Positions 5,615 through 31,687 of a stretch of DNA of 60,489 nucleotides are shown one piece after another. Below the pieces are notes generated by a model. The model was given only the letters and a program-made list of their open reading frames with translations, was not told where the DNA came from and made no database searches. The position numbers and the translations under genes are program-made. The stretch comes from an uncultured Fibrobacterota bacterium (GTDB lineage: Bacteria > Fibrobacterota > Chitinivibrionia > Chitinivibrionales > CAYFVL01), in assembly GCA_964346405.1 (NCBI GenBank), contig CAYFVL010000002.1, positions 1-60,489 on the forward strand, in the 5' to 3' direction. Within the stretch, counting starts at the first letter, position 1. Each line of letters begins with the position of its first letter.

Positions 5615-7840
5615 TCAGGTGGGCTTTATCGTAATAGTGTCGCCTTCGCCCAGGATCCGGAAAACCGTACCTTCTCCGGCGCGCAGAAGCTCGATGCCGT
5701 TTCGAGAAAAACTGATCCATTCGATAGCGCCGCCTTTTATGCTTGCCGATACGCTTATGCCTTTTTGGGCGCGAATGCCATGGAAAACGACATCTTTCCA
5801 TTCAGCCGGCAATGCCGGGAAAACCTTGATACTATCATCATGCGATTGAACCAGCATAGTAGCGAGGGCAAGAATAAACGATGTGTAATTGGTGGAAAAA
5901 TAGGGTTTTTTGTTGCGCGGGTTTTCGTTTAAAGTCGTACGCGATTGATCAAGACAGGCGAGGTTGTGGCGCAACGATTCCAACGCTCCGGCGGCATCGC
6001 CCAAACCCGCGAACGACAGCGAATACCAGTTTGCAATAAAGCCGATCATTTGAGCGCCGCGACCGTTTCGCTCCCAGCCGTCGCGAAGCGTCGCCAGGGC
6101 GCGTTTGGCATTGAGCGTACGAATCATTTCGGGCCAGGGAAACCCGAGGTAAACGGGGCCGCGAATGCCAAAATAGTCTCCGCCTTTGCGCTCCCGCTTG
6201 TCGCCCAGGTACTCGAGATAGAATTTTCCGTTGTGAGGCAGATAAAGCTCCTGAGAGATTTCATGCCATTGTTCCGCGAGGTCATTGTCACAACCAAGCT
6301 GCTTAGCGTATCGTGCGGCGACTTCAAGACTACCCCGTGCGGAAAGGGTCGCATCCAGAATGCAGCGTTCCGATAGATTTTCGGATACCGAATGAAGAAC
6401 CGGCAGCGTATAGGCATTGAGCGATTCGTCCCATTCCACGATCGCGCGCCAGAATTCGGCAATTCCTTTGATTGCGGGATAGGCATATTGATACAAAAAA
6501 ACCGGATCCCGATAATAGAAGGCTAGACGATGAAACATCGCGGCGGTGAATCCATCGATGCCCCTCTGATGAGCCCGCCGCATGCGGCAGTTACCGTGCA
6601 AACCAATCTGATGTGCAAAGCTTAGCGGGCTGCTATCGTCAAGTATGCCGCCACAACACTCGCCTCTTGCATAACGCTCGAAATGTCGGTCGGGATTAGA
6701 TGGTTGTTGTTCATCGCCGCTGCTGGTGGGGGTAAAGAAAGCTTGCGTATCACCGCTTTTTATAGCTTGGATGTAGGTCTTGGCATTGTGTCGCAGTGCG
6801 GAAGATTTGAAATGCTCGCGTGCCATTTTATGGGCTAGATTATCATGTCCCAGAATCGCATACGCAAAGACGCTCCAACCGGCGCCGCCATAGGTATAAG
6901 GAATCATGCGCCAGCAGTCATGGGCGAACTGCGCCTCCCCGGGGAGGAATCTGTCGGCGCCGCAGGTACAGAATGTCCAATAAACGGAACGGTAAAAAAG
7001 CGACTCCAGCTCTTTGTCTGGGATATCGATGGCCGCGGTTTGCTTCCAGAGCTTTTGCCGGGCGCAGATACTCGCAAGTGATAAAAACTCGAAATCCTGG
7101 CTTGCGGCAATCGAATTTTCACAGCGGCTTGGAAAATCCTCACCACACCAATGCGTATGCATGGAGAATAGGACGGTCAGCGGCGAGTTTTTATCAGTTA
7201 CGAAATTAAAGGTGTACTCGCCGCATTGTTCGATCGCTTGATTTACGCGAATGATATACATGCACCGCGTGAAAGCATTTTCGCTGCTGCATGCATAAAT
7301 AGTATAGGGATCCGGGTGAAATATCTTCAGTTCAGGCAACCCCTTCCTCTCAAAAACCGGTATATGCAGTTTACCCTTGCCGCTTTTGCTGCATTGTAAC
7401 CGCAGCGCCAGCAGGCGTTTTTCGGCGGCGGAGAAGAAGACTTTGCATTCGTAACGTGCGCCGTTTTCCCCCTGCATGTGCGTCTCTGCAATACCGGTTG
7501 CAATATCAAGCTGTTGCCGGTACTGCGAATGACCGTTTTGCGGCAAATCTGCGCATTCAAGCGCAAATCCTTTCAGGGGCATCCGTATTTCCTGCGTTTG
7601 CCAAAGGTCGGAAAACCATAACGAGGGAAACCCCAACCCGTCACCATTCAAGAGACCGCCCATTTCAGTATTTCCCATAAGCAGCGGCAGGTCAGTTTCC
7701 TTCAGTTCGTTTCTTTCAAATGCATAGCATGCAAGCTTTGCCCGGAGCAGGTCATTTTTAGTACGATGCAACTGCTTTCCTCTCTGTATTTGGCTTGGGA
7801 ATACTGAAAATGAGAATGCATGGGGTTTCTGGAACCCCAT
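5615..7840 (-). CDS. GH95-like (alpha/alpha)6 glycoside hydrolase (fucosidase/galactosidase-type fold)
   Basis: 741-aa ORF. The C-terminal signature IKVFPALPAEWKDVVFHGIRAQKGISVSASIKGG resembles the conserved GH95 end (LLPALP..W..G.V.GLRARGG). An SVSEN segment resembles the GH95 SPE motif. Confidence 0.5.
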   Translation of the reverse strand: MGFQKPHAFSFSVFPSQIQRGKQLHRTKNDLLRAKLACYAFERNELKETDLPLLMGNTEMGGLLNGDGLGFPSLWFSDLWQTQEIRMPLKGFALECADLPQNGHSQYRQQLDIATGIAETHMQGENGARYECKVFFSAAEKRLLALRLQCSKSGKGKLHIPVFERKGLPELKIFHPDPYTIYACSSENAFTRCMYIIRVNQAIEQCGEYTFNFVTDKNSPLTVLFSMHTHWCGEDFPSRCENSIAASQDFEFLSLASICARQKLWKQTAAIDIPDKELESLFYRSVYWTFCTCGADRFLPGEAQFAHDCWRMIPYTYGGAGWSVFAYAILGHDNLAHKMAREHFKSSALRHNAKTYIQAIKSGDTQAFFTPTSSGDEQQPSNPDRHFERYARGECCGGILDDSSPLSFAHQIGLHGNCRMRRAHQRGIDGFTAAMFHRLAFYYRDPVFLYQYAYPAIKGIAEFWRAIVEWDESLNAYTLPVLHSVSENLSERCILDATLSARGSLEVAARYAKQLGCDNDLAEQWHEISQELYLPHNGKFYLEYLGDKRERKGGDYFGIRGPVYLGFPWPEMIRTLNAKRALATLRDGWERNGRGAQMIGFIANWYSLSFAGLGDAAGALESLRHNLACLDQSRTTLNENPRNKKPYFSTNYTSFILALATMLVQSHDDSIKVFPALPAEWKDVVFHGIRAQKGISVSASIKGGAIEWISFSRNGIELLRAGEGTVFRILGEGDTITIKPT

Positions 7841-7872: not shown

Positions 7873-10758
7873 TTATCTCAGAATTATCTTTCTCCGACCG
7901 ACCTCGCGTCCATCAGCCGTGAGCTGCACGAAATAGACACCCGCGGCGCCGGCCTCGAGTTTTCGGGAGTATGTTGACAAAGCTGAAGCGACGCCGTCCG
8001 ATACGGTTCTGCCGTCGGGCTGAAAAATCGCAAACCGGAGAGGCTGATTCAGAGAATTTCGGAAAACCAGCGTACCCTCTTTGATCCGAATATGTATTTG
8101 TTTGAAAGATTGGGCACTCGGCGCTTTCGAGGTTCCGTAGCCGGGATGTGACGATGTTTCAACCGCATCCAACTGCACTCCCGCAGGGTTGTCGGGATCA
8201 ACGTCCAGCTCCGGCCAGACCGTTTCCCCGGCGCGTTGTCTTGCGATGATATCCCAATCCTGTTGGTAAGAACTTAGCTCCATTGAGCCGCAGTCCAACC
8301 ACATGATTATCCGCCGACGTTCCTCGTCGGTCAGTTGGACATCGTTGTGTTCGGGGTAGAGGTGCGGCAAAATTCGGGATGCTTTTGCGCCGAATTTCCC
8401 GGCTATGGTTCGAGAGCCGCCATGTTTGGAGCACAATTCATTCGGTTCCGTTGCATGAAAATAGAAAACGCGGTCTTTCAGATCTGATCCTCCGCCGCCT
8501 CCGCCGGCCCATTCAGTCCAACCGAACTCTCTGTTTTTACTCCAGTAATCGAATGAAATCCCTTTGCCTTTCTCCTCGTGGCATGGTGCACATTTCTGAT
8601 CAAATATCGGTTTGGCCAACTGATAGTAGTTGATCGGGCATGAGCCGTGAAAAGGTACTTCGAGTTTTGACGGATCTCGCCGCAATGCTTTCGGACTTCC
8701 CGGCAGCGTGGTACCTTTGAGTCTATCTTCATGACATCCCAGACAGCTCAAGTGTTCGCCGGGATGAACGTAGGTACCCGATCGCATAGACTGTATCGCC
8801 ATTCCCTCATCGTCGATAGCCTGGAAATAGATTTCTCGCTCAATTGGCGCCTCAAAATAGGCGCTCCCGTCGTCTTCTACGGGAACTTGCCCGAGGACGG
8901 CCCGCACAATACTCCCTTTGCCGTATCCACGCCATGGATCCCGCCATACGTATGACGACCACGGTTGGGGAATAAGCTGAACGATTCTGAGCTCCTTAAC
9001 CTTCTTTTCCTCAACGACACCCTCGGGCCATTCGAAATCCGATTCATACACGTTGAGAACACTGATCGTCGCCTTCGGGGCCTTGGATCGACGTTCGCCC
9101 TGGTAGGTCGTGGTCGGACGTACCGGCGGCCGTTCTCTTTTTCGGAGCGGCCTTGGATAACGTACCGGGACTTTGCGAAAAGAGCTTTGGTGAAGAGTAA
9201 CCATGTTGCCGAAGCGATCGCCCAGAACGACTCGATCGGTGTGGCCGGCCAGATAGAAGTCCTCGTTCAAAGGGTACGGCTCAAACAAACCGAATTCATC
9301 CGGTTTGCAGTTCGGGCACCAGGACCGGATCTTGTAGTTATCACGCTGGAAACATTCCCGGGGGAAAAATGTCTTGATTTGCGACATTTCATTATCATCG
9401 GGTATGCGGGTGTCTATAAGAATAACCTGTCCGCACGGGGAGGTATGATGGCCGGTTTCCACCGCCATGTATTTCGGGGATTCAGGAATAGCCCGGATCG
9501 CCTGCTCCGCCCAGGGGCGATAACTATTGTGACCGTTAGCACAAAATTCATTGCCGTGTTGCTCGCGGTAGACGGGTAAAGGGTAGTTTCCATGCGGGGC
9601 TCGCGGATCGGTTCCGTCGGGACCGCATATCCACATATGGTGCGCGGCGTTGAAATCCCGGTCTATGTAGTCCCATCTCGTGTAAACGATGCCTCCGTCG
9701 TTGGTAACGCTTGGATAGAGATCGCTTGTCTCGTGCCAACTGAGGCATATCAGATCCTGGCCGTTGTCTTTAACAGAATACAGGGTTCCAATCGGTGTGG
9801 GACCGCCGATTCGTTCATTTCCACAGCGGACGCCGGCATGCCGGCGCTCGGATATAAAAGCGATTCTTCCATTCGGGAGCCAGCAGGGATGGTAATCGTT
9901 GAATTTGTCGCTGTCGGTGAGTTGGATCAGGTTGGATCCGTCAAGGTTCATCTGGAACAGGTGAAACGTGCTCTCTTCCGACCGGTTTCGTAAGTCGCCG
10001 CGCCCCCTGTACTTCTTGTCGCAATTCTGAACCCATGAGAAAACGATGCGGTCCGCATCAAAATCCAGATCCAAAGAATTGTAAGCGCATTTGCCGTCCC
10101 ACTCAGAATTTTTGTTACTGAGGCTTTTCCCTTCGTACCGTCCGTTGGTAACCGAAGCATCGGCGAGGATATCCTTCTGTTGAACGGCGTTGGTTTTGTA
10201 TCCTGAAGCGATATATATCCCCGCTTCCGAATCCTCTTGCGCCTCATGTCCCCAATCATTGTTTGGAATGATACCATAGTTCCCAATATATCCGCAGAAG
10301 AGAATGGTATCGAAATCGAGCACCGGATTTTGAAGAGCTATTTCTCGACGGATTCGGCATATTTCGTCAAAGGTCGCGCGGCTTGTGTCGGTCATTGCCG
10401 AAACCTCGGTCTCGAGACTATTCAGTCGGGTACGAAGCTTTTCCAATGTATCCGTTGGGGAATCGGCTGCAAGATACCTCAACAAAGCGGACGCGCGTCG
10501 GAAGACAACCTGTGACGGGGTAGTCTCATTTTCCAGGATCAGTACATTGGTATCGACCACCGTTTCCCGGTTGTTGTCCCGGATTCTTTGTCCATTCTTG
10601 CCGTATTCGACCAACTGGACCTGCAGCGCCTGGAATTCCTTCTGCCGGTATTTGGCAAGTTCGATATTTTCGGCGACACTCCCAAAAATAAAAAGAAGAA
10701 CAGGCATTGCCTTCTTCAGGATCGATACCCGGACTCCTCGTCGTTTTACGCCCGCCAT
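7873..10758 (-). CDS. Secreted beta-propeller / di-heme c (2x CXXCH) protein with T9SS C-terminal domain (HzsA-like architecture), paralog P1
   Basis: The ORF is open to 10854, but ATG 10758 has a GGGAGA RBS and starts a signal-like MAGVKRRGVRVSILKKAMPVLLFIFGS. Motifs: WLPNGRIAFISE, SWHETSDLYPSVTNDGGIVYTRWDYIDRD, DGTDPRAPHGNYP, HLSCLGCHEDR, KCAPCHEEKG. Tail: GVYFVQLTADGREVGRRKIILR. Confidence 0.8.
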   Translation of the reverse strand: MAGVKRRGVRVSILKKAMPVLLFIFGSVAENIELAKYRQKEFQALQVQLVEYGKNGQRIRDNNRETVVDTNVLILENETTPSQVVFRRASALLRYLAADSPTDTLEKLRTRLNSLETEVSAMTDTSRATFDEICRIRREIALQNPVLDFDTILFCGYIGNYGIIPNNDWGHEAQEDSEAGIYIASGYKTNAVQQKDILADASVTNGRYEGKSLSNKNSEWDGKCAYNSLDLDFDADRIVFSWVQNCDKKYRGRGDLRNRSEESTFHLFQMNLDGSNLIQLTDSDKFNDYHPCWLPNGRIAFISERRHAGVRCGNERIGGPTPIGTLYSVKDNGQDLICLSWHETSDLYPSVTNDGGIVYTRWDYIDRDFNAAHHMWICGPDGTDPRAPHGNYPLPVYREQHGNEFCANGHNSYRPWAEQAIRAIPESPKYMAVETGHHTSPCGQVILIDTRIPDDNEMSQIKTFFPRECFQRDNYKIRSWCPNCKPDEFGLFEPYPLNEDFYLAGHTDRVVLGDRFGNMVTLHQSSFRKVPVRYPRPLRKRERPPVRPTTTYQGERRSKAPKATISVLNVYESDFEWPEGVVEEKKVKELRIVQLIPQPWSSYVWRDPWRGYGKGSIVRAVLGQVPVEDDGSAYFEAPIEREIYFQAIDDEGMAIQSMRSGTYVHPGEHLSCLGCHEDRLKGTTLPGSPKALRRDPSKLEVPFHGSCPINYYQLAKPIFDQKCAPCHEEKGKGISFDYWSKNREFGWTEWAGGGGGGSDLKDRVFYFHATEPNELCSKHGGSRTIAGKFGAKASRILPHLYPEHNDVQLTDEERRRIIMWLDCGSMELSSYQQDWDIIARQRAGETVWPELDVDPDNPAGVQLDAVETSSHPGYGTSKAPSAQSFKQIHIRIKEGTLVFRNSLNQPLRFAIFQPDGRTVSDGVASALSTYSRKLEAGAAGVYFVQLTADGREVGRRKIILR

Positions 10759-10927
10759 ATGAGTCTCCCTTTGGCCTGTGTTTGCATGTCCGCTTAGGAT
10801 TAAAGTAGAGCGAAAAACAGAAACCGGAGAAGAAATTGCGTGTCTTTTCTGCATTGTGCTTTCTTTGCTTTCGCGGTCGGAAGAACGGTGCCCGGCCCTT
10901 AAGTCGCGTCAAGGCCGACCGATCGTC

Positions 10928-11005
10928 TTAACCCAGGTTTCGCAGTCAAGATCGTGCAACAGCTTACGCAGAATGCCGTGAGTCGATTGCGAAACCTGGG
11001 TTAGC
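10928..11005. mobile_element. MITE family 1, minimal 78-bp copy
   Basis: Perfect 16-bp terminal inverted repeats TAACCCAGGTTTCGCA / TGCGAAACCTGGGTTA. The outermost TA at each end may be a duplicated target. Confidence 0.8.
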
Positions 11006-11177
11006 GAAGCCGGTTGAAGAGTGGGCGGTTGAAACCCACGGATCAGGGGGCGAGGCGCCGCCCGCCCAACGTCTCTGGAAGCGGATCGCGGTTCAACTAA
11101 TAAACGTGTGCGAATCCGAATGCTGTTGGCATGGCACGATATGGTCCGGAAATCAAATCGCGGAGATTACCGTCAGG

Positions 11178-12083
11178 CTAAGTCCTCTTGTTGTTACAAC
11201 GGTTCATCTTTCGATACGATCCCGGCTGTGTGCCGGTATATTTTTTAAAACAGGTTGCAAAATACTGGCTGCTTTCAAATCCGGTTTCCAGAGCAATAGC
11301 GGTAATTGGCATTGTGGTATTGGCAAGCAGTGACTGCGCTTTTCTGATTCGAATACGCATCAAATAATCCCCGGGGGTAAAACCGGTAGCGTTTTTGAAT
11401 ATGGTATGCAGCCGCCCTCCTGAAATGCCCGCTAAGGAAGCCAATTCCTCGATTCTGATAGTGTTCTGCAAATTTCTATCCATGTAATCGATTATTCGTT
11501 GTATGCGTTTCCCCACCTGCCGCTTATTTCCCCCCTGCCGAATAGTAATTGCAACCCGGCTGATGATATAGTTAAGCAGATTTCGCATGCCAAATAGGAG
11601 TATCCGGTCGACACGGTCCGGGGGAACACCGGCGACCTCATGAAGCAAACTGTACAGCATGTATAACGGGCCGGTCAGCTCTTCGCCGCCATACCAAACA
11701 TTATTTCCCGCACTTCCAAAGATCCTGGATAGTTCGATATTCTCATCCTCGCTGAATCCCGTATCGAGTTGAGCTACTTCTTCGATATTCAAAACGAGCC
11801 AGAAAATCGAGGCCGCCTCAATGATATCCATCCTGCCGTGATGGATAACCTTTGGTTGTATCAAGGCAAAGTCACCACCCTCAAGAACAAGGGGGGATCC
11901 GTCTCCAAGCTCCCATGACACGCCTCCCTTGATTACAAAAGTTATTTCGTGACCATCATGCGTATGTGACGAGAGACGACGGCTTTTCGAGGGAGGGACA
12001 TAGAACCCGGTGCGGATTATCATTGGCAACCCGAACTTACGACCCAGGATTTCGATTCTGCCGGGAGTATAGGAATACTTCAT
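11178..12083 (-). CDS. AraC-family transcriptional regulator (cupin sensor plus HTH)
   Basis: 301-aa ORF. The C-terminal HTH_18-like segment is IEELASLAGISGGRLHTIFKNATGFTPGDYLMRIRIRKAQSLL...IALETGFESSQYFATCFKKYTGTQPGSYR. Confidence 0.85.
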   Translation of the reverse strand: MKYSYTPGRIEILGRKFGLPMIIRTGFYVPPSKSRRLSSHTHDGHEITFVIKGGVSWELGDGSPLVLEGGDFALIQPKVIHHGRMDIIEAASIFWLVLNIEEVAQLDTGFSEDENIELSRIFGSAGNNVWYGGEELTGPLYMLYSLLHEVAGVPPDRVDRILLFGMRNLLNYIISRVAITIRQGGNKRQVGKRIQRIIDYMDRNLQNTIRIEELASLAGISGGRLHTIFKNATGFTPGDYLMRIRIRKAQSLLANTTMPITAIALETGFESSQYFATCFKKYTGTQPGSYRKMNRCNNKRT

Positions 12084-12361
12084 ATGTTCAAAATAATTAT
12101 GGGGACAAGATTGAACGCAGACCGGGTTCCCTTATGCTAAGTTACCTTAAGACTGGGCGCCTCGTGCAGCAACATAATACATCTCCTATTCAGAATCCGG
12201 TGGTAAAATCAATGAGAACGATCGGGTAGTTTCGTGCCGCGGAACCGAAATTGACGCCGGCTCAGCTCAGTTAGGCTGGAACCGGGACCACGGAACGGTA
12301 GTTTTCGAAAGGCAACCACACAGGTGTGAACAGGTGATTACATAATTAAAGGGGAAATGGT

Positions 12362-15298
12362 ATGAAAAAGCCGATGTCTGCGATGAGGATTTCGAAATGG
12401 TGGATTGCCATGGCCGTGATTCTCGGAAATTTGTTTTCGGTTTCGTCTCAAGCCGCGGAAGACATGAGCGACCGTTTGCAAGAGCATTGGAAATCGGACC
12501 GGGAGCAGCTCAGGTATCAGCTTGAGAAACGGTCAAGACTTTCCGAACGCGCCAATGCGTCGCGACTGGAGGAATTTCCCGAAGACATTCACGCCCTGGT
12601 TCTCGACGACGATCAGACTCCCACCGACCTGGTGCTGCGACGAACTCGCGCGCTGCTTAACCATATCCGGCAAATGTCGAACCCACCGGATCTGTCTCAG
12701 CTCGGTTCAGAGCTTACCGAACTCGAAAGTCGTTTGCAGCATGATGATACCGAAGAAGGTTTCTTTGAGGCTTGTGCGTTGCGTAGAAGAATCGCCATGA
12801 ACAACCCGCTTCTTGATTTCGAGGAAATTCTTTTCTCGGGATTTGCCGCGGGCGAATGGCTCATTGATATAGGCAATGTCGCAAATAACGCTGTCCGCGC
12901 TCCAGATGCCGGTCTCTACAAAGTTGGGGGGTTCAAGTCGGGAAATGCAACGGTTACAGACCTTCTTGAAGATGCTGTGGTACAGTCTGGACCGTACGAT
13001 ACCTACAAAGGAAAAACGTTAAGCAACAAGAACCCGGAATGGGGGGGGAATGCGCTTTTTCATTGTCCCGCCCTTTCCTATGATGGAACCGAAGTGGTCT
13101 TCTCGTGGGCGCCGGATATCCAGGGAACACGTACGGGCAGAGCCCCGAATAAACAGTTTGTGCTGTTCAAGATGAATCTGGACGGTACCGGTTTAACCCA
13201 GCTCACCGAGCATCCCTGGGCTAATGTCTACCACCCCTGCTGGCTCCCCAGTGGACGAATTGTGTTTATTTCTGAAGAACTTGACAGAGCGGCCCGGTGC
13301 GGCGCCAATGATCTTGGCGGTAATCTTTTTTCAATGAAGCCCGATGGGAGCGATTTGTTTCCTCTCAGTTGGCATGAGACGGATGAAATATACCCGAGCG
13401 TGGACAATAACGGATTGATCGTCTACACCCGCTGGGATTATGTTGATCGGAAGTTTTCCACCGGGCAGCACTTGTGGACATGCTATCCCGACGGCAGGGA
13501 TCCGCGCGCTCCCCATGGGAATTACGGCAGACCGGGAGATCCCGATTGCGAGGTAGCTATACGAGCTATTCCGGGCACACAGGGATTATACTCGGCCATT
13601 GAGACAGGGCATCACTCCTGCTACTTTGGGAATTTAGTAATTATCGATACCCGCAAAAACGAGAATGTCGAACAACCGATGCATCACTTCTGGCCCGGTA
13701 CCAAAGACCATGGTGATAAGGGATTTAATCGCGGTGCGACCTCGCCCGATGTGAAGGTAGAACTGGACAGATTCTATCTCGAGCCATGGCCGTTGAGCAA
13801 GGAATTCCACATTGTAACCTTGATCGGAAAGGTCCTCTTGGTTGACCGGTTTCGCAACGAGATTCTTCTGTATGATGCCGGTTCGCTGCTGGGAGAGCGA
13901 ATTCCCGCACGCTTCCCCCAGCCGGTGAAGGCGCGCCCAAAACCAACCTCGATTCCGGTGCAAACGTACCAGGGAGAACGCCGCAAAGATTCGCCGAAGG
14001 CGACTATATCCGTACAGAATGTCTATGAAGCCGATTTCGAGTGGCCCGAGGGAACAAAAATCACTCAGTTGAGGGTCGTTCAGATCATACCCAAGGCCTG
14101 GTCCCTTCGGAGTGGCCATAATGATGCCATGATCGGTTACAGCGACGGCGGCATTCCGCGCCTGGCCCTGGGTGTCGTGCCGGTCGAGGAAGACGGAAGC
14201 GCCTATTTCGAAGCACCGATCGAGTGCGAGATTTACTTCCAGGCCTTGAACGAAAAAGGTATGGCGGTGCAGACGATGCGCAGCGGGACCTATGTCCACC
14301 CCGGGGAACACCTGAGCTGTCTTGGATGCCACGAAGACAGGTGGTCGGCCACCCCGGTAGCAGGCACACCGAAAGCTTTGACCCGGGAGCCGTCAAAGCT
14401 GGAGCCGGAACCGGAAGGGTCTTGTCCCCTTTCGTACGCTCGACTAGTCCGTATCCCGGTATTTGAAAAGAAATGTGCTCCCTGTCACCAGGACAGTGGA
14501 AAAGGGATCAGCTTTGGCTACTGGAAAGACATGACCTGCCCTGAATATAAAGAAGCACATGGCTTGCCGAAAGCGAAAGGAATAAGCCCTCAATATACAC
14601 CTGGTGATATTGAGAGATTTGTCAGGTGGCATTTTGCCAGTGCAAGTAATGGTGCTTGCGAATGGACAAAGGCGAACGGCATCGGATGGGGGAAACCATA
14701 TAAAATAGAAAACAACACCCTTGGGTATGAAAGAGAGGAGTGGTATACGAAACCCGGGACTTTTGGAGCTCTGGCGTCCAAACTGAAAAATCATCTCACT
14801 CCCGAACACCACGATGTACAACTAACCGAGGAAGAATTCAGACGAGTGGTTGTCTGGATGGATCTTAACGCGTTGAATCTTTCGAGCAATTATCCCGATA
14901 AAGAAGTGCAGGCTCGACAGGAAGCCGGTGAAATAGTCTGGCCGTATATCGATGTCGACCCCAGTAATCCCACTAGAGTACAGTTGGACGGAAATGGCAC
15001 ATATGCAAAATCGCCGCGGAATGCACGGCAGGCGGGCATACACACCGGTTCGGCTTCACTGAGGATTCGCCGGCTTGGCGGACGAATAATTGTCGAGAAT
15101 GCCGCCTCGGGACCGATGGTCGTGAAAATGTACAATTCGCTTGGCCGAACCAGTGAGATAATCCGGACCCAGGCACGTGGAGCCGGACAAACAACTATTC
15201 CGGTAGGCCTCAGGACGGGAGGAGTCTATATCATCTCCGTCGAGCAACAGGATCGTCGGGGAACTATTCACTTCGTGGCGAACGGCAGCGAACAGTGA
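12362..15298 (+). CDS. Secreted beta-propeller / di-heme c protein with T9SS C-terminal domain, paralog P2
   Basis: 978-aa ORF with RBS AAAGGGG before the ATG and signal peptide MKKPMSAMRISKWWIAMAVILGNLFSVSSQA. It shares the P1 motifs, including HLSCLGCHEDR and KCAPCHQDSG. Tail: GGVYIISVEQQDRRGTIHFV. Confidence 0.85.
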   Translation: MKKPMSAMRISKWWIAMAVILGNLFSVSSQAAEDMSDRLQEHWKSDREQLRYQLEKRSRLSERANASRLEEFPEDIHALVLDDDQTPTDLVLRRTRALLNHIRQMSNPPDLSQLGSELTELESRLQHDDTEEGFFEACALRRRIAMNNPLLDFEEILFSGFAAGEWLIDIGNVANNAVRAPDAGLYKVGGFKSGNATVTDLLEDAVVQSGPYDTYKGKTLSNKNPEWGGNALFHCPALSYDGTEVVFSWAPDIQGTRTGRAPNKQFVLFKMNLDGTGLTQLTEHPWANVYHPCWLPSGRIVFISEELDRAARCGANDLGGNLFSMKPDGSDLFPLSWHETDEIYPSVDNNGLIVYTRWDYVDRKFSTGQHLWTCYPDGRDPRAPHGNYGRPGDPDCEVAIRAIPGTQGLYSAIETGHHSCYFGNLVIIDTRKNENVEQPMHHFWPGTKDHGDKGFNRGATSPDVKVELDRFYLEPWPLSKEFHIVTLIGKVLLVDRFRNEILLYDAGSLLGERIPARFPQPVKARPKPTSIPVQTYQGERRKDSPKATISVQNVYEADFEWPEGTKITQLRVVQIIPKAWSLRSGHNDAMIGYSDGGIPRLALGVVPVEEDGSAYFEAPIECEIYFQALNEKGMAVQTMRSGTYVHPGEHLSCLGCHEDRWSATPVAGTPKALTREPSKLEPEPEGSCPLSYARLVRIPVFEKKCAPCHQDSGKGISFGYWKDMTCPEYKEAHGLPKAKGISPQYTPGDIERFVRWHFASASNGACEWTKANGIGWGKPYKIENNTLGYEREEWYTKPGTFGALASKLKNHLTPEHHDVQLTEEEFRRVVVWMDLNALNLSSNYPDKEVQARQEAGEIVWPYIDVDPSNPTRVQLDGNGTYAKSPRNARQAGIHTGSASLRIRRLGGRIIVENAASGPMVVKMYNSLGRTSEIIRTQARGAGQTTIPVGLRTGGVYIISVEQQDRRGTIHFVANGSEQ

Positions 15299-15405
15299 TA
15301 ACCGAACAGCATTGAGTTTCGGCCGCCTCTGTCCATGCAAAGCATAGCGCAAGCCGACTACGGATAAGTTACACCTACTACGTGATTACGCGAAGGAAAC
15401 AAACA

Positions 15406-15582
15406 TTAACCCAAGTTTCGCAGTCGAGAGACGCCGTACCGCGCTGCACCTGAGCGGTGTCGAAGTGAGCGAAGCGTTGCATTGCGCTGCATTGCGGTGT
15501 CGAAGTGAGCGGTGTCGAAGTGAGCGGTGTCGAAATGTCGAGAGCGAGCATTATGCGTAAGATGTTGTGCGAGATTGACTTA
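15406..15582. mobile_element. MITE family 1 copy (177 bp) with internal 15-bp microrepeats
   Basis: The left end TTAACCCAAGTTTCGCAGTCGAGAGACGCCGTACCG is the reverse complement of the right ends at 37783 and 44900. GGTGTCGAAGTGAGC is repeated at 15456, 15496 and 15511, with a partial copy at 15526. The other end carries the variant terminus GTGCGAGATTGACTTA, also seen at 56079-56094. Confidence 0.75.
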
Positions 15583-15761
15583 GAAAAAGCGCAGGGGTAT
15601 CCGGGGAGATACCTTGAGTCCGGCCCGGCGGGACCGTGAGTTGGTTGCGAAACTTGAAACTAATTTCAGCGGTTGGGTAAAACAGTCTTAGCCGGTAAGA
15701 TTTTCGCGAATAGGGGCCTTGAAGGACGCTCTTGCGGATAATGCATCGTGAGCACATGCAT

Positions 15762-17183: not shown

Positions 17184-17427
17184 GCAGTACTTCGCCCGTT
17201 CTGGTGTTGATGGTACAATTTTAACACTTCGGATACACAGGATACTGTTAATATAGATGAATGGCGGAATTCTGCCGTATATTTCACGGGTATAGCATAC
17301 CTGTCGGCCGGCACGAACCGAACCTGCTGTCCGTGTCGTCCCGGAGTATCGTTTTCAGTTACATATGCCGCGTCCGACGCAGGGCTGAGCCGGAAACACG
17401 GGGCGGGCGTTGAAAAGGGGTGGAGTA

Positions 17428-20208
17428 ATGCAGATGGTATGGATAGGTCGGAGATTTCTTTCGGTCAAATTGCCTGTTTTGTTAGCGTCCGTCGTTCTTA
17501 TGATCGGAACCGCGCATGCCGACTGGCCGTCAATGTTCGGGCCGAACCACAATTTTTCTTCGGAAAAGAGCAGCATCACCCTTGTCGAAGGGTTCCAGAA
17601 CGCGCGTCTGGGGTGGGTCAGCGAAGCCTCCGATCTTGGAAACGGCAAGTATCCTACGGCTTTCCCCGGTCCATGTGTAAACTCCGGTATCTATGCCGGC
17701 GGTGCCGCGAGTCCGATTGTGTATGACGGAAAGATTTTCGTGAATTATTTCATTCCCTCCGGAGACGTCTATGCGAGTCGATACCTTAGTGAATATGAAA
17801 AATCGCTGTGCTTTGCAATTGAGGCCGACGATGTGATGATCGCCGTCGACGCCGCGACCGGGAAAACGGTGTGGAAAAAGCAGATGCCCCAATCCGGTCT
17901 GAATATTCCCATGGATAAACGAGCCGGCTGGGGACCGACACCGGTTGCGCTGGACGGACGGGCTTTCAAGATATCGACCATGGGCCTTGTGCTGGCCTAC
18001 GATGCAGACGACGGAACAGAACTCTGGCGAAACGATGTTGGGGAGCAGCACGACCGACTCGTATCTATAAAACAGGAACTGCTTGAGGAAGCCGAGAATT
18101 ACTATGCCGGAGACGAAGGGTATAATCCCGGTCTGATCGTGGCCGAAGGGATTCTTGTGACCGGCGATTTCAGTGAAGGGCTTATAGGATTCGATCCGCA
18201 AACGGGGAAGAAACTCTGGGTACACAAAAATGTTCGGTTGCGTATGAATACTCCCTCCGTTTTCACCTTCAACGGCAGGGATTATGTAATAATCGCCGAT
18301 CCTGGAAGAAACCGAATGATTTTAGTAGATCCGATCAATGGTGAGATACTCTGGGAGAGGACAAATATCCAGCATAGTGGACCGATAGTTTGTTCCGGAG
18401 AGCATGCGTTTGTTGTCGAAGGTGAAGCAGAGAGCTGGTCCGGAAGATGGACGGCGTACCGGATTACGCCGGCGGGGGCGGAGCACGTGTGGACGCTGTC
18501 GGATGAGTATTCCGAGGTTGTAACAAAACCGGACAAAGGACCGCGTCCTCACGTAACATACCATGATGGATTCGTGTATATCGTACATTTTGTCGGCGGC
18601 GGGACCGATCCGCAACTGTTGGCTGTCGAAGAAGAAACCGGACAGGTGGCGGCAACTCACCGAGGGAACCAGGTAGAGGGAAACTCGATGCCGTTTGTCT
18701 TTGAGGATCGCGTGTGCGTCGTGCGAGACATGTGGCATCAGAACCCGACCTGGACCATGTTTGAGAAGGCCACTCTCACACCGATCGGTGAAACATGGGG
18801 CGGTGCATTTCAGGGGATTACCGGCTACGAAGTCCCGAGTGTCATACCCTATTCCGACGGGTTTCTGTATGCCCGGACGGCTCTGGGAACACTTGCGGCA
18901 TACGATCTGCGTCGGTCGGCCGACATCCCAACCGTTACTTTGACGCACCCGTCCAGTGACACGACGATTTCGAATACGGCCGTAGAAACGCTCAAAGCAA
19001 CAGCTTCACACGCCGGCGGTATTGCGAAGGTATCCTTCTATGTAAACGGTGCCAAGGTGGGAGAAGACGATTCCGCGCCTTACGAAACTATTTGGGATAA
19101 CAAAACGCCGGGCGACTATTTTGTCTATGCCGTCGCGTATGCTGCCAACGGTTACAAAAGCAGTTCGTCTTCGATACCCGTATCTGTAATTGCCGACGCC
19201 TGCACCGGCGCTCCGGGGCAGGTGACAGCCACTAACCCGTCGAACGGTGCCACGCTGACAAACACCCGAATGCCGACCCTGCGCTGGTCGTGGACGGGAG
19301 ATTTTGAGAATATCCCCACTGGATACAAGGTGTACCTGGGCGATAACGCCGACGACCTGGAAAAGGTAGCCGAACTCTCGAATGTCGGCGATAGCACATT
19401 TGTTGTGGAAGAAACGCTGGAGATGGAGAAAACCTATTTCTGGCGGGTCGATGCGGTAAACAGTTGCGGGATCACGCAGGGACAGGTACAATCGTTCACG
19501 ATCGAAAAGCCCCAGGGCTTCCGGTATCTTCGAGTTCATTTCTTCAAAGAGGGGGGAATGGAGTTTCGAATATTCTCGGTTGAGTGGCTGGGCGATGGTG
19601 GAAACATTGTACCCACGCTGACGTCGAACATAGAACAGGGCGTGGCTCTCGATGCGAATGTCGACGAGGCGAGTGCATTTCATATTTACGACGGCAACGC
19701 GGATACAGAGTGGGGGAATTCAGAAACGGCACGCAATACAATTGACTTTGGCCCGAGTACGGTAGTTACCCCCGACCAGGTCAAGGTGAGCTTCAATCGA
19801 GATGCTGATTCAATTCGTTTTGAGGGCTCCTATTTTGGGAACGAATGGTATCGCATCGGTATAATTGGGGATACGCACGAGTACGGCGGCAGTTTTACGA
19901 TCGATCTGGGAGAGCCCGTGCGGATCGAGTCTGCCCCGGTAACGGCGATTCCGACGCCCACTCTGCCGGAGAAAAGGCCGACGGTTCGCCTCACCGGTCA
20001 TTCAATCCATATAGAAACACCGGACAACAGTGCTGAATTTACCGTTACCCTGCTCGATGTTTCCGGCAGAACCGTTGCCGTGCGGAGAGTTACACAAGGC
20101 CGGTTGGAGTTGCGCAATCTCCTTCCGTCGGGAGGGATGTACCTGATGCAAATCACGGCGCGTGGAACCGGGAAGGTCTATCGAAAACGTTTCTGTGTGT
20201 TCCGGTAA
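17428..20208 (+). CDS. Secreted multidomain protein: PQQ-like beta-propeller, Ig-like, Fn3-like and discoidin-like modules, T9SS C-terminal domain
   Basis: PQQ-type blades recur as D..TG...W: DAATGKTVWK, DADDGTELWR, DPQTGKKLWV, DPINGEILWE. The signal peptide is MQMVWIGRRFLSVKLPVLLASVVLMIGTAHA. Tail: GGMYLMQITARGTGKVYRKRFCVFR. The ORF is open from TTG 17410, so the start is uncertain by 18 nt. Confidence 0.7.
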   Translation: MQMVWIGRRFLSVKLPVLLASVVLMIGTAHADWPSMFGPNHNFSSEKSSITLVEGFQNARLGWVSEASDLGNGKYPTAFPGPCVNSGIYAGGAASPIVYDGKIFVNYFIPSGDVYASRYLSEYEKSLCFAIEADDVMIAVDAATGKTVWKKQMPQSGLNIPMDKRAGWGPTPVALDGRAFKISTMGLVLAYDADDGTELWRNDVGEQHDRLVSIKQELLEEAENYYAGDEGYNPGLIVAEGILVTGDFSEGLIGFDPQTGKKLWVHKNVRLRMNTPSVFTFNGRDYVIIADPGRNRMILVDPINGEILWERTNIQHSGPIVCSGEHAFVVEGEAESWSGRWTAYRITPAGAEHVWTLSDEYSEVVTKPDKGPRPHVTYHDGFVYIVHFVGGGTDPQLLAVEEETGQVAATHRGNQVEGNSMPFVFEDRVCVVRDMWHQNPTWTMFEKATLTPIGETWGGAFQGITGYEVPSVIPYSDGFLYARTALGTLAAYDLRRSADIPTVTLTHPSSDTTISNTAVETLKATASHAGGIAKVSFYVNGAKVGEDDSAPYETIWDNKTPGDYFVYAVAYAANGYKSSSSSIPVSVIADACTGAPGQVTATNPSNGATLTNTRMPTLRWSWTGDFENIPTGYKVYLGDNADDLEKVAELSNVGDSTFVVEETLEMEKTYFWRVDAVNSCGITQGQVQSFTIEKPQGFRYLRVHFFKEGGMEFRIFSVEWLGDGGNIVPTLTSNIEQGVALDANVDEASAFHIYDGNADTEWGNSETARNTIDFGPSTVVTPDQVKVSFNRDADSIRFEGSYFGNEWYRIGIIGDTHEYGGSFTIDLGEPVRIESAPVTAIPTPTLPEKRPTVRLTGHSIHIETPDNSAEFTVTLLDVSGRTVAVRRVTQGRLELRNLLPSGGMYLMQITARGTGKVYRKRFCVFR

Positions 20209-20233
20209 GGGAACTCGGGGCCTCTGGGAAACG

Positions 20234-20276
20234 CAAAAAAACTGAAGCGAAACGCCACTTTCGGCATTTCGCTTCA
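20234..20276 (-). terminator. Rho-independent terminator downstream of P3
   Basis: Minus strand: a 14-bp stem (TGAAGCGAAATGCC / GGCGTTTCGCTTCA, one mismatch) with a 6-nt loop, followed by GTTTTTTTG. Confidence 0.7.
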
Positions 20277-20398: not shown

Positions 20399-23326
20399 TC
20401 AATCAGCGTCCGTTCTCAATCTGACCGGCAACCTCACCGTCTGAGTTTCGCCGGTACGGTAGGTGACTTTCACGAAATGGATCCCCGGGCTCATCCGTGA
20501 GGAGATGCTCGCGAGAGTTCCGGTTGCCCGGTCGTCATTTGACGGTTGCAAGGCGCGGATTCGTCGGCCCCTGAGATCAAGCAACTCAAGTGAGATTGCG
20601 CCCGCGGGCACAGTGATACGGTTCCCCTGTACCTTTAAGTCGTTGTCTCTTGTCGGCGGACCGGACCGTTTGTCGGTTTTGATCCCTACGGTACCATCCG
20701 GAGGCCACTCTACCGACGTCGGATTGGCGGGATCTACTTCGCCGTGCGGCCAACGGATCTCTCCTCGTGCCTGTGACTCCAGGTCAACATAGGCGCCGTG
20801 GAAGTCTGAATTGCAGTCAAGCCAGAGAGTAATGCGACGCATTTCTTCCGGGGTGAGTTTCACGTCATTGTGGCCGTTTTTCAACATAGGATACAGCTTC
20901 GACCCAAGAGCCCCGGTTTTCCCGGGAATGCTGTAGTGGACGTCTTCAAGCCCCAGGGTTGAATCACCCATACATTTGCTTCCATCATTATCCCAATAGA
21001 ACGAATATAGGCGAAGATTCATGTAGCTTTCAGTCCAGTACTCCCAGCTCTCCCTCCCGTTTTCGAGAGATTTACCACATGATGTACCGTTGTTGGAAAG
21101 CTGACCTTCAAGAACGGTTCCTGCTAATCGCGGAGCCTTGTCCGGATGTTTTTCATGACAGGGTTGACATTTTTCATCCAGTACCGGTTGCACGAGTCGG
21201 CTGAAGGAAAATGGACGACTTCCAGGAACTTCGGCCGTGATTTTTGAGGGTAGCCGTTGCTGAGCCGTAACTTGTCCTTTTGGTTCGGGAATTTTCCACT
21301 TATCTTCATGGCAGCCAAGACAACTGAGGTGCTCTCCAGGGTGAACGTAGGTTCCGGACCTCATTGATTGAACCGCGACCCCGTTTTCATCCAAAGCCTG
21401 AAAATAGATCTCTCTTCCGACAGGCGCCTGGAAAAATGCGCTGCCGTCCTCTTCAACCGGGACCGTCCCAAGGACCATCCGAGCACCGCCATGCTTTGCA
21501 TATCCTACCCAACTATTGTCCACGCTTTGGACTCTCTTGTTCAGAAGAACCTGAACGATTCGAAGCTGAGTTATTCTTGTTCCTTCCGGGAAGGGCAATT
21601 CGGATTCATACACGTCGGTAACGGAGATCGTAGCCGGCGTGTGATCTGCCAACCCACTTCGTTCGCCCTGAAAGGTTTGGGTCGACAACACTGGTGGCGT
21701 TGGACGGGATGCCTGCGGCATTGCATCCCAGATGAGAAATTCTCGGTTTTTCGGCCGTAACAAAAGTTCCTTATTGCCGAACTGATCAAGCAGATACAGT
21801 GAATACCTGTTGAGGCCATGCCGGTCTATCTTCCACCTTGACTTTTCCGGACGCTCTTCGTTGGGTATCCACTTGGAGCCGTGTGAGATCAAATAGTACT
21901 TCTCGCTCAGAGGCCAGGGGGTGGCGTAAGCGGCATCCGAGGCGAGGAACTTCAACTGTGAGCATTTCCGGTCATCCGGAATTCTTGTATCGATGATCAA
22001 CGGAGGCCCGGCGTATCCTTGATTGTGATTTCCCCCAATTGCGATGTATTTTTGAGAATTTGGAATTGAACGTATTTGTTTCTCGGCGGTCGGGCGATAA
22101 CGCCGACTCACATTTGCTGGAGCATAGTTGCCGTGCGGGGCACGGGGATCTCTTCCATCGGGGTAACACTTCCAGAGGTTGTGGAAATACCACAGGTTCC
22201 GATCCACATAATCCCACCGGGTGTAGACGATCATCCCGTCATTATCAACGCTTGGTTCCCATTCCTTTGTTTCATGGACGCTCAGCCAGATGCGGTCCGA
22301 CCCGTCGTCTTTCATGGAAAACAGGTTCTGTGAAGGACGAACATAACCCGTGCCGTCACAACGACCTTGAACGTCAAACGAATCAGAGGTAAACACAATG
22401 CGACCGTTTGGAAGTTGGCATGGATCCTGGTCGTCCCAGGGGCGGTCAAGCACCGACATCAGGTTTGAACCATCTACGTCCACTTTGTAAATACCAAACG
22501 AACTTCCCTGGCTGTGATATTTTGAGAAATTAAAGCTCCCACTTTCTTCCCCTCCTTCAACCAATCCGGCATAGCCAAAATAAACCTCAGTTCCTCCAAA
22601 GGTGACCTCGAGTCCACGAAACACACCGGGATTCAGAGGCTTTCCCGCAAGGCGACCGTTTTGTACAACGGAGTTCTCCAGAAGGTTTGACACCGAAGGG
22701 GCGTCACCGAAGGGATCATGAAGGACGTACACTCCTGCCGTGCTCAGGTCGAAATCTTCATCACCATAGATCCTTTTGAGCATGAACGATGAAGTCGCCT
22801 TGGTGACGTGAGAGTCGTGATTCCCCGGGTATTCTATGAAAAGGATCTTGTCGAAATCAAGCAATGGGTTCTTGAACGCTATTTCTCTCCGCAACTGGCA
22901 TACTTCAAGGTAGAGAAGTTTTCTGTCGGAAACGTCGGCAAGGCTAACAGATTCGGCTCTCGTCCGGATATTCGTAAGCCGATCGGCCTCCGATGAAAAC
23001 GTTGTTGATTCACCCCCCGAGGATTGGAGATCTTCGAGCAGCATGCTCACGCGACGAAGCGCGATGTCCAGCGGATCACGGTCTTCAGAGACCAGACCCG
23101 CGGCTGGGTTCAGAAGTGAAATGTCGCATTGGTATGGCTGGTAGTTCTTGTGCCCACCCTTAATGCGTAGGTCCAGTTCTCTCCATTGCGTATTCCATTC
23201 ATTCTCAACCATTTCACGACTGATATATTCACCGGCCAGAGCTGCAAAGGCAAAGACCAATATTAGCACGGCAAGATACCGACTGGATTTTATTGGAAGC
23301 GTATTAGCGATTTGGCGTTGTTTCAT
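20399..23326 (-). CDS. Secreted beta-propeller / di-heme c protein with T9SS C-terminal domain, paralog P3
   Basis: The ORF is open to 23377, but ATG 23326 follows a GGAGG RBS and starts MKQRQIANTLPIKSSRYLAVLILVFAFAALA. Motifs: SVHETKEWEPSVDNDGMIVYTRWDYVDRN, DGRDPRAPHGNY, HLSCLGCHEDK, KCQPCHEKHP. Tail: GIHFVKVTYRTGETQTVRLPVRL. Confidence 0.85.
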   Translation of the reverse strand: MKQRQIANTLPIKSSRYLAVLILVFAFAALAGEYISREMVENEWNTQWRELDLRIKGGHKNYQPYQCDISLLNPAAGLVSEDRDPLDIALRRVSMLLEDLQSSGGESTTFSSEADRLTNIRTRAESVSLADVSDRKLLYLEVCQLRREIAFKNPLLDFDKILFIEYPGNHDSHVTKATSSFMLKRIYGDEDFDLSTAGVYVLHDPFGDAPSVSNLLENSVVQNGRLAGKPLNPGVFRGLEVTFGGTEVYFGYAGLVEGGEESGSFNFSKYHSQGSSFGIYKVDVDGSNLMSVLDRPWDDQDPCQLPNGRIVFTSDSFDVQGRCDGTGYVRPSQNLFSMKDDGSDRIWLSVHETKEWEPSVDNDGMIVYTRWDYVDRNLWYFHNLWKCYPDGRDPRAPHGNYAPANVSRRYRPTAEKQIRSIPNSQKYIAIGGNHNQGYAGPPLIIDTRIPDDRKCSQLKFLASDAAYATPWPLSEKYYLISHGSKWIPNEERPEKSRWKIDRHGLNRYSLYLLDQFGNKELLLRPKNREFLIWDAMPQASRPTPPVLSTQTFQGERSGLADHTPATISVTDVYESELPFPEGTRITQLRIVQVLLNKRVQSVDNSWVGYAKHGGARMVLGTVPVEEDGSAFFQAPVGREIYFQALDENGVAVQSMRSGTYVHPGEHLSCLGCHEDKWKIPEPKGQVTAQQRLPSKITAEVPGSRPFSFSRLVQPVLDEKCQPCHEKHPDKAPRLAGTVLEGQLSNNGTSCGKSLENGRESWEYWTESYMNLRLYSFYWDNDGSKCMGDSTLGLEDVHYSIPGKTGALGSKLYPMLKNGHNDVKLTPEEMRRITLWLDCNSDFHGAYVDLESQARGEIRWPHGEVDPANPTSVEWPPDGTVGIKTDKRSGPPTRDNDLKVQGNRITVPAGAISLELLDLRGRRIRALQPSNDDRATGTLASISSRMSPGIHFVKVTYRTGETQTVRLPVRLRTDAD

Positions 23327-23660: not shown

Positions 23661-24518
23661 GTGAACTTTTCAAAAGCTGTTGAGAAAAACTATCCTCATG
23701 GTCGCAACCGACTGTTTCCCGTCTATGGGAGGGAAGGGGAGGTCTTTCGAGACGCGGGGATAAATCATTGCGGTCTGGCTCATCTTACCGGTGAGTACCG
23801 TCGGGAGAGACGGAACCACAATCTGCATTTAATTGTTATCTCGATCTCGGGCAGCGGATACTTTCTCGATAAGGAAGGAGAAGTGTCGGTTTCTAAGGGA
23901 GAGACACTCTTCTTTCCGGCACGAGTACCTCATTTGTATGGAATGAAAGACGGTGAATGGGAATTTATCTTTTTCTTTTTGGAACCCGGTGTGCGGATTG
24001 TCAATTTGCCCAACCGTACCATGGTAAGTCGAGGCCTGGCCCCGGGGGAGTTCGATACGCTGATGAACCTGTTCTGGTCGGAATGCCTTAAGGAACGGAA
24101 AGACTCTCAGGCCCTGCTTGATCACCTCGCTCATATGATACTCATCTATTTGCAGAGGGAGATTGAATGTTTCACCCCCGACGGTGAAAAAATCCCGCTG
24201 CCGGTCGAGCAGAAAGAGCTGTGGAAGAAGGTTGAAGCCAACATCGAGAGAAGATGGACGGTGCACGAACTGGCCGAGCTGGCCTGTATGTCCGTGAGTT
24301 CTTTCAATCGGTTGTGTAAAAAGAATTACGGCATGCAGCCGATGAAGATCGTTGGCAAGCTACGGATCAACAGAGCTAAAGCGCTGCTGTCCATGTCGGA
24401 CTTGTCCATAAAACAAGTCGCGTATTTATCGGGCTACACAAACCAACTCTCCTTTTCGACTTCATTCCGAAAAGCCGCCGGTGTTACGCCAACTGAATTT
24501 AGAAAACGCTATGTGTAA
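23661..24518 (+). CDS. AraC-family transcriptional regulator
   Basis: 285-aa ORF. The C-terminal HTH is VHELAELACMSVSSFNRLCKKNYGMQPMKIVGKLRINRAKALL...QVAYLSGYTNQLSFSTSFRKAAGVTPTEFRK. Confidence 0.85.
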   Translation: MNFSKAVEKNYPHGRNRLFPVYGREGEVFRDAGINHCGLAHLTGEYRRERRNHNLHLIVISISGSGYFLDKEGEVSVSKGETLFFPARVPHLYGMKDGEWEFIFFFLEPGVRIVNLPNRTMVSRGLAPGEFDTLMNLFWSECLKERKDSQALLDHLAHMILIYLQREIECFTPDGEKIPLPVEQKELWKKVEANIERRWTVHELAELACMSVSSFNRLCKKNYGMQPMKIVGKLRINRAKALLSMSDLSIKQVAYLSGYTNQLSFSTSFRKAAGVTPTEFRKRYV

Positions 24519-26518: not shown

Positions 26519-26545
26519 GACCGCCGGCCGGTCAGGCTATGCACT

Positions 26546-31675: not shown

Positions 31676-31687
31676 AGGAGTAAAATT

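Follow-up and report, generated by a model that had tools for sequence, protein, structure and literature searches.

Why should a single bacterial contig carry four relatives of HzsA, the alpha subunit of hydrazine synthase, among genes for glycan breakdown? The contig, CAYFVL010000002.1, comes from an uncultured Fibrobacterota bacterium; the window that we analysed is the whole contig as held at NCBI (60,489 bp), and metagenome assemblies from microbial mats (PRJEB25599) contain the identical sequence too. A first-pass annotation had described four paralogous genes, here called P1 to P4, as encoding secreted proteins with a beta-propeller, two c-type hemes and a type IX secretion system (T9SS) sorting tail, and had suggested that they serve in redox-assisted glycan processing or sensing. 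We find that P1-P4 are new members of a known, uncharacterised HzsA-related family, and that they are most likely surface-exposed diheme oxidoreductases.

Four paralogs with an HzsA-like fold

The four open reading frames (ORFs) lie exactly where they had been placed: P1 at 7873..10758 on the minus strand (961 aa), P2 at 12362..15298 on the plus strand (978 aa), P3 at 20399..23326 on the minus strand (975 aa) and P4 at 40125..42938 on the plus strand (937 aa). Longer ORFs are possible upstream for three of them (P1 to 10854, P3 to 23377, P4 to 40032); a GGAG-type ribosome-binding site precedes each of the starts at 10758, 12362, 23326 and 40125, with a signal-peptide-like N-terminus directly after it, and the Joint Genome Institute gene calls match P1 (961 aa) and P2 (978 aa). 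Read by eye from the translations, each N-terminus starts basic, turns hydrophobic and reaches an Ala-X-Ala-like site, which fits the signal peptide of the first-pass annotation. End-to-end alignment likewise bears out the collinearity of the proteins over their full length, with identities to P1 of 44% (P2), 38% (P3) and 37% (P4) and a range of 37-44% among the paralogs, and every conserved block quoted earlier is present in all four.

What kind of protein is this? All four match the Pfam family HZS_alpha (PF18582), at 80.8, 76.0, 81.2 and 74.0 bits for P1 to P4 against a gathering cut-off of 26.6; weak PD40 and TolB profile matches occur as well. The domain order in P1 is a signal peptide (residues ~1-31), a helical N-domain (to ~141), a propeller (~150-540), the HZS_alpha middle domain (~560-680), a cytochrome c domain (~690-850) and a T9SS-like tail (886-961). 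From 98 family sequences, AlphaFold2 gave a model of P1 (mean predicted local distance difference test score, pLDDT, 86.5; predicted template modelling score 0.86) with a helical N-domain at 11-141, the propeller, a beta middle domain, a helical cytochrome domain and a terminal beta-sandwich at 886-960. Compared with the PDB by Foldseek, the model found as its top matches 5c2v_D and 5c2v_A, the HzsA of Kuenenia stuttgartiensis (E 1e-21 over 850-856 columns, 16% identity; target-normalised template modelling scores of 0.58-0.59), and the second-ranked fold was TolB (E ~6e-9), over the propeller only. The heme half of P1 modelled alone (pLDDT 87.7) again matched HzsA (E 1e-10), and besides HzsA no PDB entry reached E 0.001.

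In sequence searches of the PDB, HzsA (5C2V chain A) was the sole significant match to P1 and came far ahead with the family profile, for which TolB and one cytochrome c gave weak, single-domain matches. The weak similarity between P1 and HzsA runs through collinear stretches, namely a propeller blade, the segment VPVE..DGS..CxGCH against heme alpha-I, KCxxCH against heme alpha-II and an LT..E...W.D helix, and the domain order of HzsA is that of P1-P4, including the conserved W-x-D helix that comes after the second CXXCH. Pfam, the PDB sequence searches and the AlphaFold and Foldseek comparisons all support the proposed layout of a propeller followed by an HzsA-like two-heme region, and we consider it highly likely that P1-P4 are HzsA-fold diheme cytochromes c. 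The TolB and PD40 propeller proteins, next-best in structure after HzsA, share the fold of the P1 propeller but lack both the heme domains and the invariant polar residue set of P1-P4; the likeness is one of fold alone.

Invariant heme motifs and a putative active site

Each protein contains exactly two CXXCH motifs, as had been claimed, with their first cysteines 51-52 residues apart. In P1 these are CLGCH (residues 672-676; 8731..8745, minus strand), at the end of the HZS_alpha domain and aligned with CSGCH of HzsA heme alpha-I, and CAPCH (residues 723-727; 8578..8592, minus strand), aligned with CAMCH of heme alpha-II; the corresponding pairs lie at 14318-14332 and 14474-14488 in P2, 21308-21322 and 21155-21169 in P3, and 42069-42083 and 42222-42236 in P4. 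Loss of the pair in orthologs had been named as evidence that would speak against heme proteins, and both motifs are in fact present in all 120 close homologs, 50-56 residues apart. Across a wider set of 257 family proteins, motif 1 is invariant (255 of 255 aligned relatives) and motif 2 is kept in 245-247 of ~250. Heme is accordingly predicted, from the motifs, to be covalently attached in P1-P4, and one relative, at locus L019, adjoins the cytochrome c maturation genes ResB and CcsA.

The conservation extends to other parts of the protein. In the 257-protein alignment the invariant or nearly invariant residues are M658 (255/255), R591 and D630-G-S in the middle domain, W820 in the C-terminal domain, and in the propeller R311-C312, H342, E346, R361-W-D-Y-x-D-R367, D381-G, R386, H389, N391, Y392, H437-H438 and D514; M658, R591, the D630-G-S triplet and the listed propeller residues are conserved at 90-100%. 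By the predicted strand pattern, the invariant propeller residues map to the B-C and D-A loops of successive blades, which in the usual propeller geometry share one face, and we infer from this a pocket that looks onto heme 1, in the manner of the HzsA propeller. Because some 20 polar residues are fixed across proteins only 35-45% identical, an active site appears the better description than a variable binding surface.

The second heme raises the question of its distal ligand. All four window proteins have a His (H804 in P1) at what may be the site of the distal ligand of HzsA heme 2, whereas the published work reports this ligand absent in its clade I. Because the His is conserved in only 68% of the family, the invariant Met658 is an alternative candidate for the heme 2 ligand.

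C-terminal tails and fused domains

P1 ends in a beta-sandwich of seven predicted strands (residues 886-961; 7876..8103, minus strand) that resembles the T9SS type A sorting domain (TIGR04183 E 1.8e-4), and the tails of P2, P3 and P4 lie at 15068-15295, 20402-20629 and 42708-42935. The assignment of a T9SS tail to each protein holds as to position, all TIGR04183 matches falling at the extreme C-terminus, while the scores stay just short of the thresholds: full-length P1-P4 reach 15.5-19.7 bits and the P1 tail alone 21.4 bits, against curated cut-offs for the type A domain of 23 bits (TIGR04183) and 27 bits (PF18962), and among the full-length proteins P4 matches best (Pfam E 7e-4, TIGR04183 E 6e-4). 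Among 98 homologs, the length past the second CXXCH is bimodal, at 117-166 residues in 45 and 208-283 in the other 53, which carry an extra C-terminal domain of ~90 aa. TIGR04183 matches 37 of these 53 long tails at E <= 0.01 (best 2.8e-8), several also match other T9SS-dependent models, and the D-x-x-G-R and G-x-Y positions are kept in the tail alignment. A fifth window protein, of the PQQ_2 type, bears the same kind of tail. On the strength of the bimodal lengths, the TIGR04183 matches, the kept GR and GxY positions and the tail of the PQQ_2 protein, we read the tails of P1-P4 as probable sorting domains, and export of these proteins by the T9SS seems likely. Our literature searches turned up no c-type or multiheme cytochrome linked to type IX secretion.

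What might such proteins act on? Extensions of at least 150 aa are present in 44 of the 257 family proteins, and the 43 that were scanned contain Laminin_G_3 (10), Mala_s_1-like propeller (7), F5/8 type C (5), NedA-like galactose-binding (4) and Laminin_G_2 (3) domains, NPCBM, fn3, PQQ_2 and DUF7402 twice each, and PA14, 3-keto-disaccharide hydrolase, FGE-sulfatase, Calx-beta and Big_5 once each. Such modules are the usual accessories of glycoside hydrolases, lyases and sulfatases. Since most of them are of lectin or carbohydrate-binding module (CBM) type, the fusions suggest a core aimed at glycans or glycoconjugates, and they are stronger evidence for this than gene context, and independent of it.

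A large family of mostly stand-alone genes

A word-indexed search returned 1,614 relatives at E <= 1e-5, the named ones from Planctomycetota, Chitinivibrionales, Fibrobacter, Sumerlaeia and Hydrogenedentota, and genome-collection matches add Kiritimatiellia, Phycisphaerae, Verrucomicrobia and Lentisphaeria. In a HMMER scan of 1.84 billion cluster representatives (50% identity), 981 matched at E <= 1e-30 and 2,991 at E <= 1e-10. All 120 listed homologs carry a precomputed PF18582 match, and some relatives bear the NCBI name "HzsA-related protein", P0052 and P0053 among them being 40-44% identical to P1.

Non-anammox homologs have been discussed as a broad family of unknown function in two papers, both centred on copies beside beta-gamma homologs (PMC12758564; PMC10732223). 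The HzsA-related proteins described there, from non-anammox Planctomycetota, Desulfobacterota and others, belong to the same PF18582 family as P1-P4 and have a canonical heme 1 site, and their clades were picked for an adjoining fused beta-gamma homolog and FG-GAP/CRTAC1 gene (PMC12758564; PMC10732223). Unlike those clades, the window copies stand alone, as do ~95% of 96 non-redundant related loci that we drew from genomes and metagenomes (genes predicted with a simple ORF caller, the HzsA-like gene found by the family profile). No T9SS tails or CBM-type fusions were met in the accessible accounts of the published clades (PMC12758564; PMC10732223), and our literature search found only these two evolutionary and metagenomic papers and no functional, glycan or T9SS study of the family. 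The first-pass annotation had called the role of these proteins undescribed, which stands for any glycan role but not for the family, already recognised through PF18582, the NCBI name and the two papers. New with respect to the literature searched are that the family is mostly stand-alone, that about half of it is T9SS-tailed and that its accessory domains are mainly lectin- or CBM-type; none of these three points yet amounts to a function.

Are the four copies a recent expansion? P1 is 72% identical to its nearest relative, P0002, and P2 89% to P0003, and P3 and P4 are ~44-45% identical to everything. Recent tandem duplication is ruled out, the paralogs not being mutual nearest relatives; P1-P4 are, by sequence identity, old paralogs, each as far from one another as from proteins of other phyla. 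The closest relative of P1 in the genome collection (65% identity) is at locus L001, on CAYOTW010000042.1, a 7-kb contig of a metagenome-assembled genome labelled Candidatus Woesearchaeota. This contig is probably mis-binned, since a bacterial-type Sec/T9SS heme protein there adjoins a GntR-type regulator with a periplasmic-binding-protein domain (GntR-PBP).

Gene context in the window and in relatives

P1 lies 32 nt upstream of a distant GH95-like glycoside hydrolase (GH) gene on the same strand (5615..7840, minus), exactly the gap that had been reported, and the two genes are probably co-transcribed. The other glycan genes of the window encode GH63/MGH1-like, two GH39-like, GH88 and apiosidase-like hydrolases, a sulfatase, a SASA esterase and a BNR protein. 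The gene for an AraC-family regulator with a cupin sensor domain (11178..12083, minus strand) shares the strand of P1, to which it is upstream, and points away from P2; a second AraC-family gene (23661..24518, plus strand) is divergent from P3. The proposed pairing with AraC regulators is therefore found at P1/P2 and P3 but not beside P4. The adjacent AraC-type sensors probably govern expression in this genome. The two regulators are not a paralogous pair, as only the DNA-binding helix-turn-helix (HTH) domain is shared, at 28% identity. The 420-nt spacer between the first AraC gene and P1 contains a nearly perfect long hairpin at 10930-11005 (aacccaggtttcgca ... tgcgaaacctgggtt), which may be a terminator or a repeat element parting two transcription units.

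Between P2 and P3 lies the tailed PQQ_2 protein, a PQQ_2/BamB-like propeller joined to Big_7 (17410..20208, plus strand; 932 aa), whose tail is sub-threshold (TIGR04183 E 5.5e-4). This gene is kept next to P3 in three other assemblies, and PQQ_2 proteins recur twice among the neighbours of relatives and twice as fusions.

Across the 96 related loci, more than one copy of the HzsA-like gene occurs in only 12. Immediately adjacent genes, counted over the 25 most frequent families listed, most often belong to Sulfatase (4), SASA (4) and GFO_IDH_MocA (3), followed with two each by CBM6, CBM35, GH141, 3-keto-disaccharide hydrolase, PQQ_2 and GntR+PBP; GH127, GH9 and GH10 occur once. In a control of 121 genes at least four positions away, ABC transporters, GFO_IDH_MocA, DnaB and other housekeeping families lead, and GHL6 is the only glycan-type family with two members among the families listed. 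Carbohydrate-active genes are thus modestly commoner next to family members than further away. Individual loci vary; P0035 is preceded by genes for a sulfatase, one GH92 and two GH95 enzymes, and a GH123 gene lies alongside another relative. There is no conserved operon, and the AraC pairing is local to this lineage.

A two-CXXCH protein of ~620-650 aa occurs within a few genes in five of the 96 loci (L019, L029, L034, L055, L059). At L019, positions 10001-21030 hold on one strand a GH141 gene, a T9SS-tailed HzsA-like gene (P0114) 61 nt downstream of it, a gene for a 275-aa unknown, a gene for a 624-aa diheme protein, two further genes, ResB and CcsA. The 624-aa protein has YNCE and CCP_MauG matches and is beta-gamma-like; this subclade keeps a partner and is linked to both a glycoside hydrolase and heme maturation.

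Proposed function and alternatives

How might these pieces work together? In the explanation that we favour, P1-P4 would be exported by the Sec pathway, receive two c-type hemes in the periplasm at the invariant CXXCH motifs, and be delivered by the T9SS, through the C-terminal sorting domain, either to the cell surface or into the medium. By analogy with HzsA, the helical C-terminal domain would contain the electron relay, heme 2, and heme 1, at the junction of middle domain and propeller, would be the reactive centre beside the invariant polar pocket (R311, C312, H342, R361-W-D-Y-x-D-R367, D381, R386, H389, N391, Y392, H437 and H438). The substrate would be a glycan or a glycan-borne group and the chemistry something other than hydrazine synthesis, with expression in this genome set by the adjacent AraC-type sensors. 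Bacterial cytochrome c peroxidase and MauG likewise contain two c-type hemes, one a relay and one reactive. They offer a working analogy, with two hemes in one secreted protein, one of them plausibly relaying electrons, although no sequence or fold similarity to P1-P4 was detected. We lean towards a catalytic role for P1-P4 over that of a pure carrier; a glycan-related substrate is a more tentative proposal, and the favoured explanation as a whole, of which the glycan layer is the weakest part, could in our judgement go either way.

Several observations weigh against this explanation. The T9SS matches in the window fall below the curated cut-offs, none of the scanned ORFs of the 60-kb contig matched T9SS machinery genes, and an array of Acido-Lenti-1 RNA matches at one end of the contig hints at a host of the Planctomycetes-Verrucomicrobia-Chlamydiae type, where a T9SS is not expected. 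The heme-ligand and pocket assignments follow from sequence position, not from model coordinates. No electron partner gene is encoded nearby, there being no other CXXCH-containing ORF among those of at least 100 aa in the window, and many of the source habitats look anoxic, which makes chemistry driven by O2 or H2O2 less obvious. As for the neighbourhoods, the 132 immediate neighbours represent more than 150 Pfam families with no conserved partner, and some relatives sit among housekeeping genes. When the window's own neighbours were used as phmmer queries against the 96 loci, AraC found no match and the GH95-like protein one, and sulfatases were spread evenly with distance (4 of 166 adjacent genes, 3 of 100 three positions out and 3 of 224 beyond that). 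Proximity to glycan genes is in any case weak evidence, because the host lineages are rich in carbohydrate-active enzymes (CAZymes) anyway. In the same searches GntR-PBP, GH63, GH39, GH88, SASA, apiosidase-like, BNR, VWA, radical S-adenosylmethionine (SAM) and other window families essentially did not recur beside relatives, single-sequence phmmer being insensitive here (SASA 0, versus 4 by Pfam). The first-pass suggestion of redox-assisted glycan processing or sensing thus has indirect support in the adjacent CAZyme families and the lectin- and CBM-type fusions, but none in the recurrence of AraC and GH neighbours.

Could P1-P4 instead be genuine hydrazine synthase alpha subunits, implying a cryptic anammox metabolism? 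The three-domain fold is alike and the Pfam HZS_alpha match is real, yet on the NCBIfam equivalog model hydrazine_alpha (NF052339) the four proteins score 30.5-41 bits against a cut-off of 800, over ~60 residues round heme motif 1, and structural-alignment identity to 5C2V is only 16-19%. At the heme alpha-I site of HzsA, Tyr591, four residues past the CXXCH His, is an iron ligand, and that His binds zinc together with Cys303 (PMC12758564); P1-P4 have L, W, W and L at that position, so the Tyr591 ligand is missing. A PDB search with the propeller block of the P1 family, run to map Cys303, gave no match even at E 10, and an invariant Cys312 exists; the propeller motifs RWDYxDR, DGxDPRAPHGNY, GHH and RC have no detectable sequence match in HzsA or any other PDB chain. 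P1-P4 further differ from HzsA in an extra N-terminal helical domain of ~110 aa, in the T9SS-like tail and in the lack of a beta or gamma partner gene, neither HzsB nor HzsC nor any other CXXCH gene being encoded in the 60-kb window. The PQQ_2/Big_7 protein was considered as a hidden HzsB-like partner and rejected: its matches are confined to BamB, to propellers of quinoproteins and to Ig-like modules, and a PDB sequence search found no match to hydrazine synthase chains. Genuine hydrazine synthase is thus vanishingly improbable, in agreement both with the first-pass view that this is not an anammox context and with what PMC12758564 concludes for other non-anammox homologs.

The main rival, which strikes us as rather unlikely, is a diheme enzyme whose substrate is small, either inorganic or of low molecular weight (nitrogen oxides, hydroxylamine, sulfur species or peroxide, for example), and which lies near glycan genes by coincidence, in a genome dense in them. 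HzsA, the one relative to have been characterised, acts on small nitrogen compounds (PMC12758564), and the invariant pocket, rich in Arg and His with a Cys, would suit small anions; neighbourhoods are heterogeneous, many of them without carbohydrate-active genes, and the minority subclade of five in 96 loci keeps a beta-gamma-like diheme partner. Against this, the ligands specific to HzsA are not conserved and the window has no partner or other heme gene, and a small substrate would leave unexplained both the mainly lectin- and CBM-type fusions and the surface-export tail on roughly half of the family. The fusions and tails would also fit a non-catalytic surface protein, whether a glycan binder or scaffold or an outer-surface electron conduit or redox sensor, in which the hemes carry electrons or stabilise the fold; TolB and PD40 propellers are often interaction modules, and with Met658 invariant and His665 highly conserved, both hemes could be carriers with six ligands. 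This we hold to be improbable, because conservation of ~20 polar propeller residues at 90-100% in proteins 35-45% identical is typical of an active site, and because all four paralogs have the same pocket, which leaves no specificity differences there. We therefore retain the surface-exposed diheme oxidoreductase as the preferred reading of P1-P4. A bolder version of it, in which the HzsA-like proteins that stand alone and have T9SS tails make up a new class of surface heme c enzymes performing redox chemistry directly on glycans or their substituents, is speculative and on present evidence unlikely; just as doubtful is the picture that would go with it, of enzymes auxiliary to polysaccharide breakdown in mat and sediment degraders, their pocket holding a sugar over heme 1 and their CBM-like modules targeting the substrate.

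Why does the identity of these proteins matter? With 981 clusters (50% identity) that match P1 at E <= 1e-30, the family is large; it has no assigned function and is spread over Planctomycetota, Verrucomicrobiota, Kiritimatiellia, Lentisphaeria, Hydrogenedentota, Sumerlaeota and Fibrobacterota-type lineages. Its members are the only visible relatives of hydrazine synthase alpha, and their ancestral job bears on the origin of that enzyme. If the glycan link is true, heme c redox chemistry would join the toolkit of glycan degraders in mats and sediments, and P1-P4 would also be an example of c-type cytochromes exported by a type IX system; if it is false, the result still guards against misreading these genes as anammox markers in metagenomes.

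Other features of the contig

Five regulators with a GntR-type HTH, often two, and a sugar-binding Peripla_BP_3 domain lie at 2280-3725, 15762-17183, 45124-46773, 53038-54486 and 54501-55985. This GntR-PBP set, of which a member also occurs at the L001 locus of the P1 ortholog, has the look of sugar sensors that expanded within one lineage.

The second AraC gene has shortly downstream of it a run of genes on one strand (25184-34280) that could be a small-molecule or peptide modification cluster. It opens with four consecutive B12-binding radical SAM genes (25184-26518, 26546-27853, 27850-29196 and 29193-30587), and continues with a weakly GNAT-like ORF (30584-31675), one ORF lacking any family match (31688-32488) and a gene for a GH3-family (PF03321) protein (32466-34280).

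Positions 1-2260 hold a tandem array of about nine units at a spacing of 180 or 258 nt. On its minus strand are seven matches to the Rfam family RF01687 (Acido-Lenti-1 RNA), a hairpin of ~46 nt, at 181-225, 619-663, 877-921, 1325-1369, 1583-1627, 1832-1876 and 2091-2135, scoring 28.7-37.4 bits against a gathering threshold of 37. The motif is described in Acidobacteria and Lentisphaerae and may point to the host lineage. Inverted partner copies of the hairpin lie on the plus strand, and a multi-copy array of this kind is unusual.

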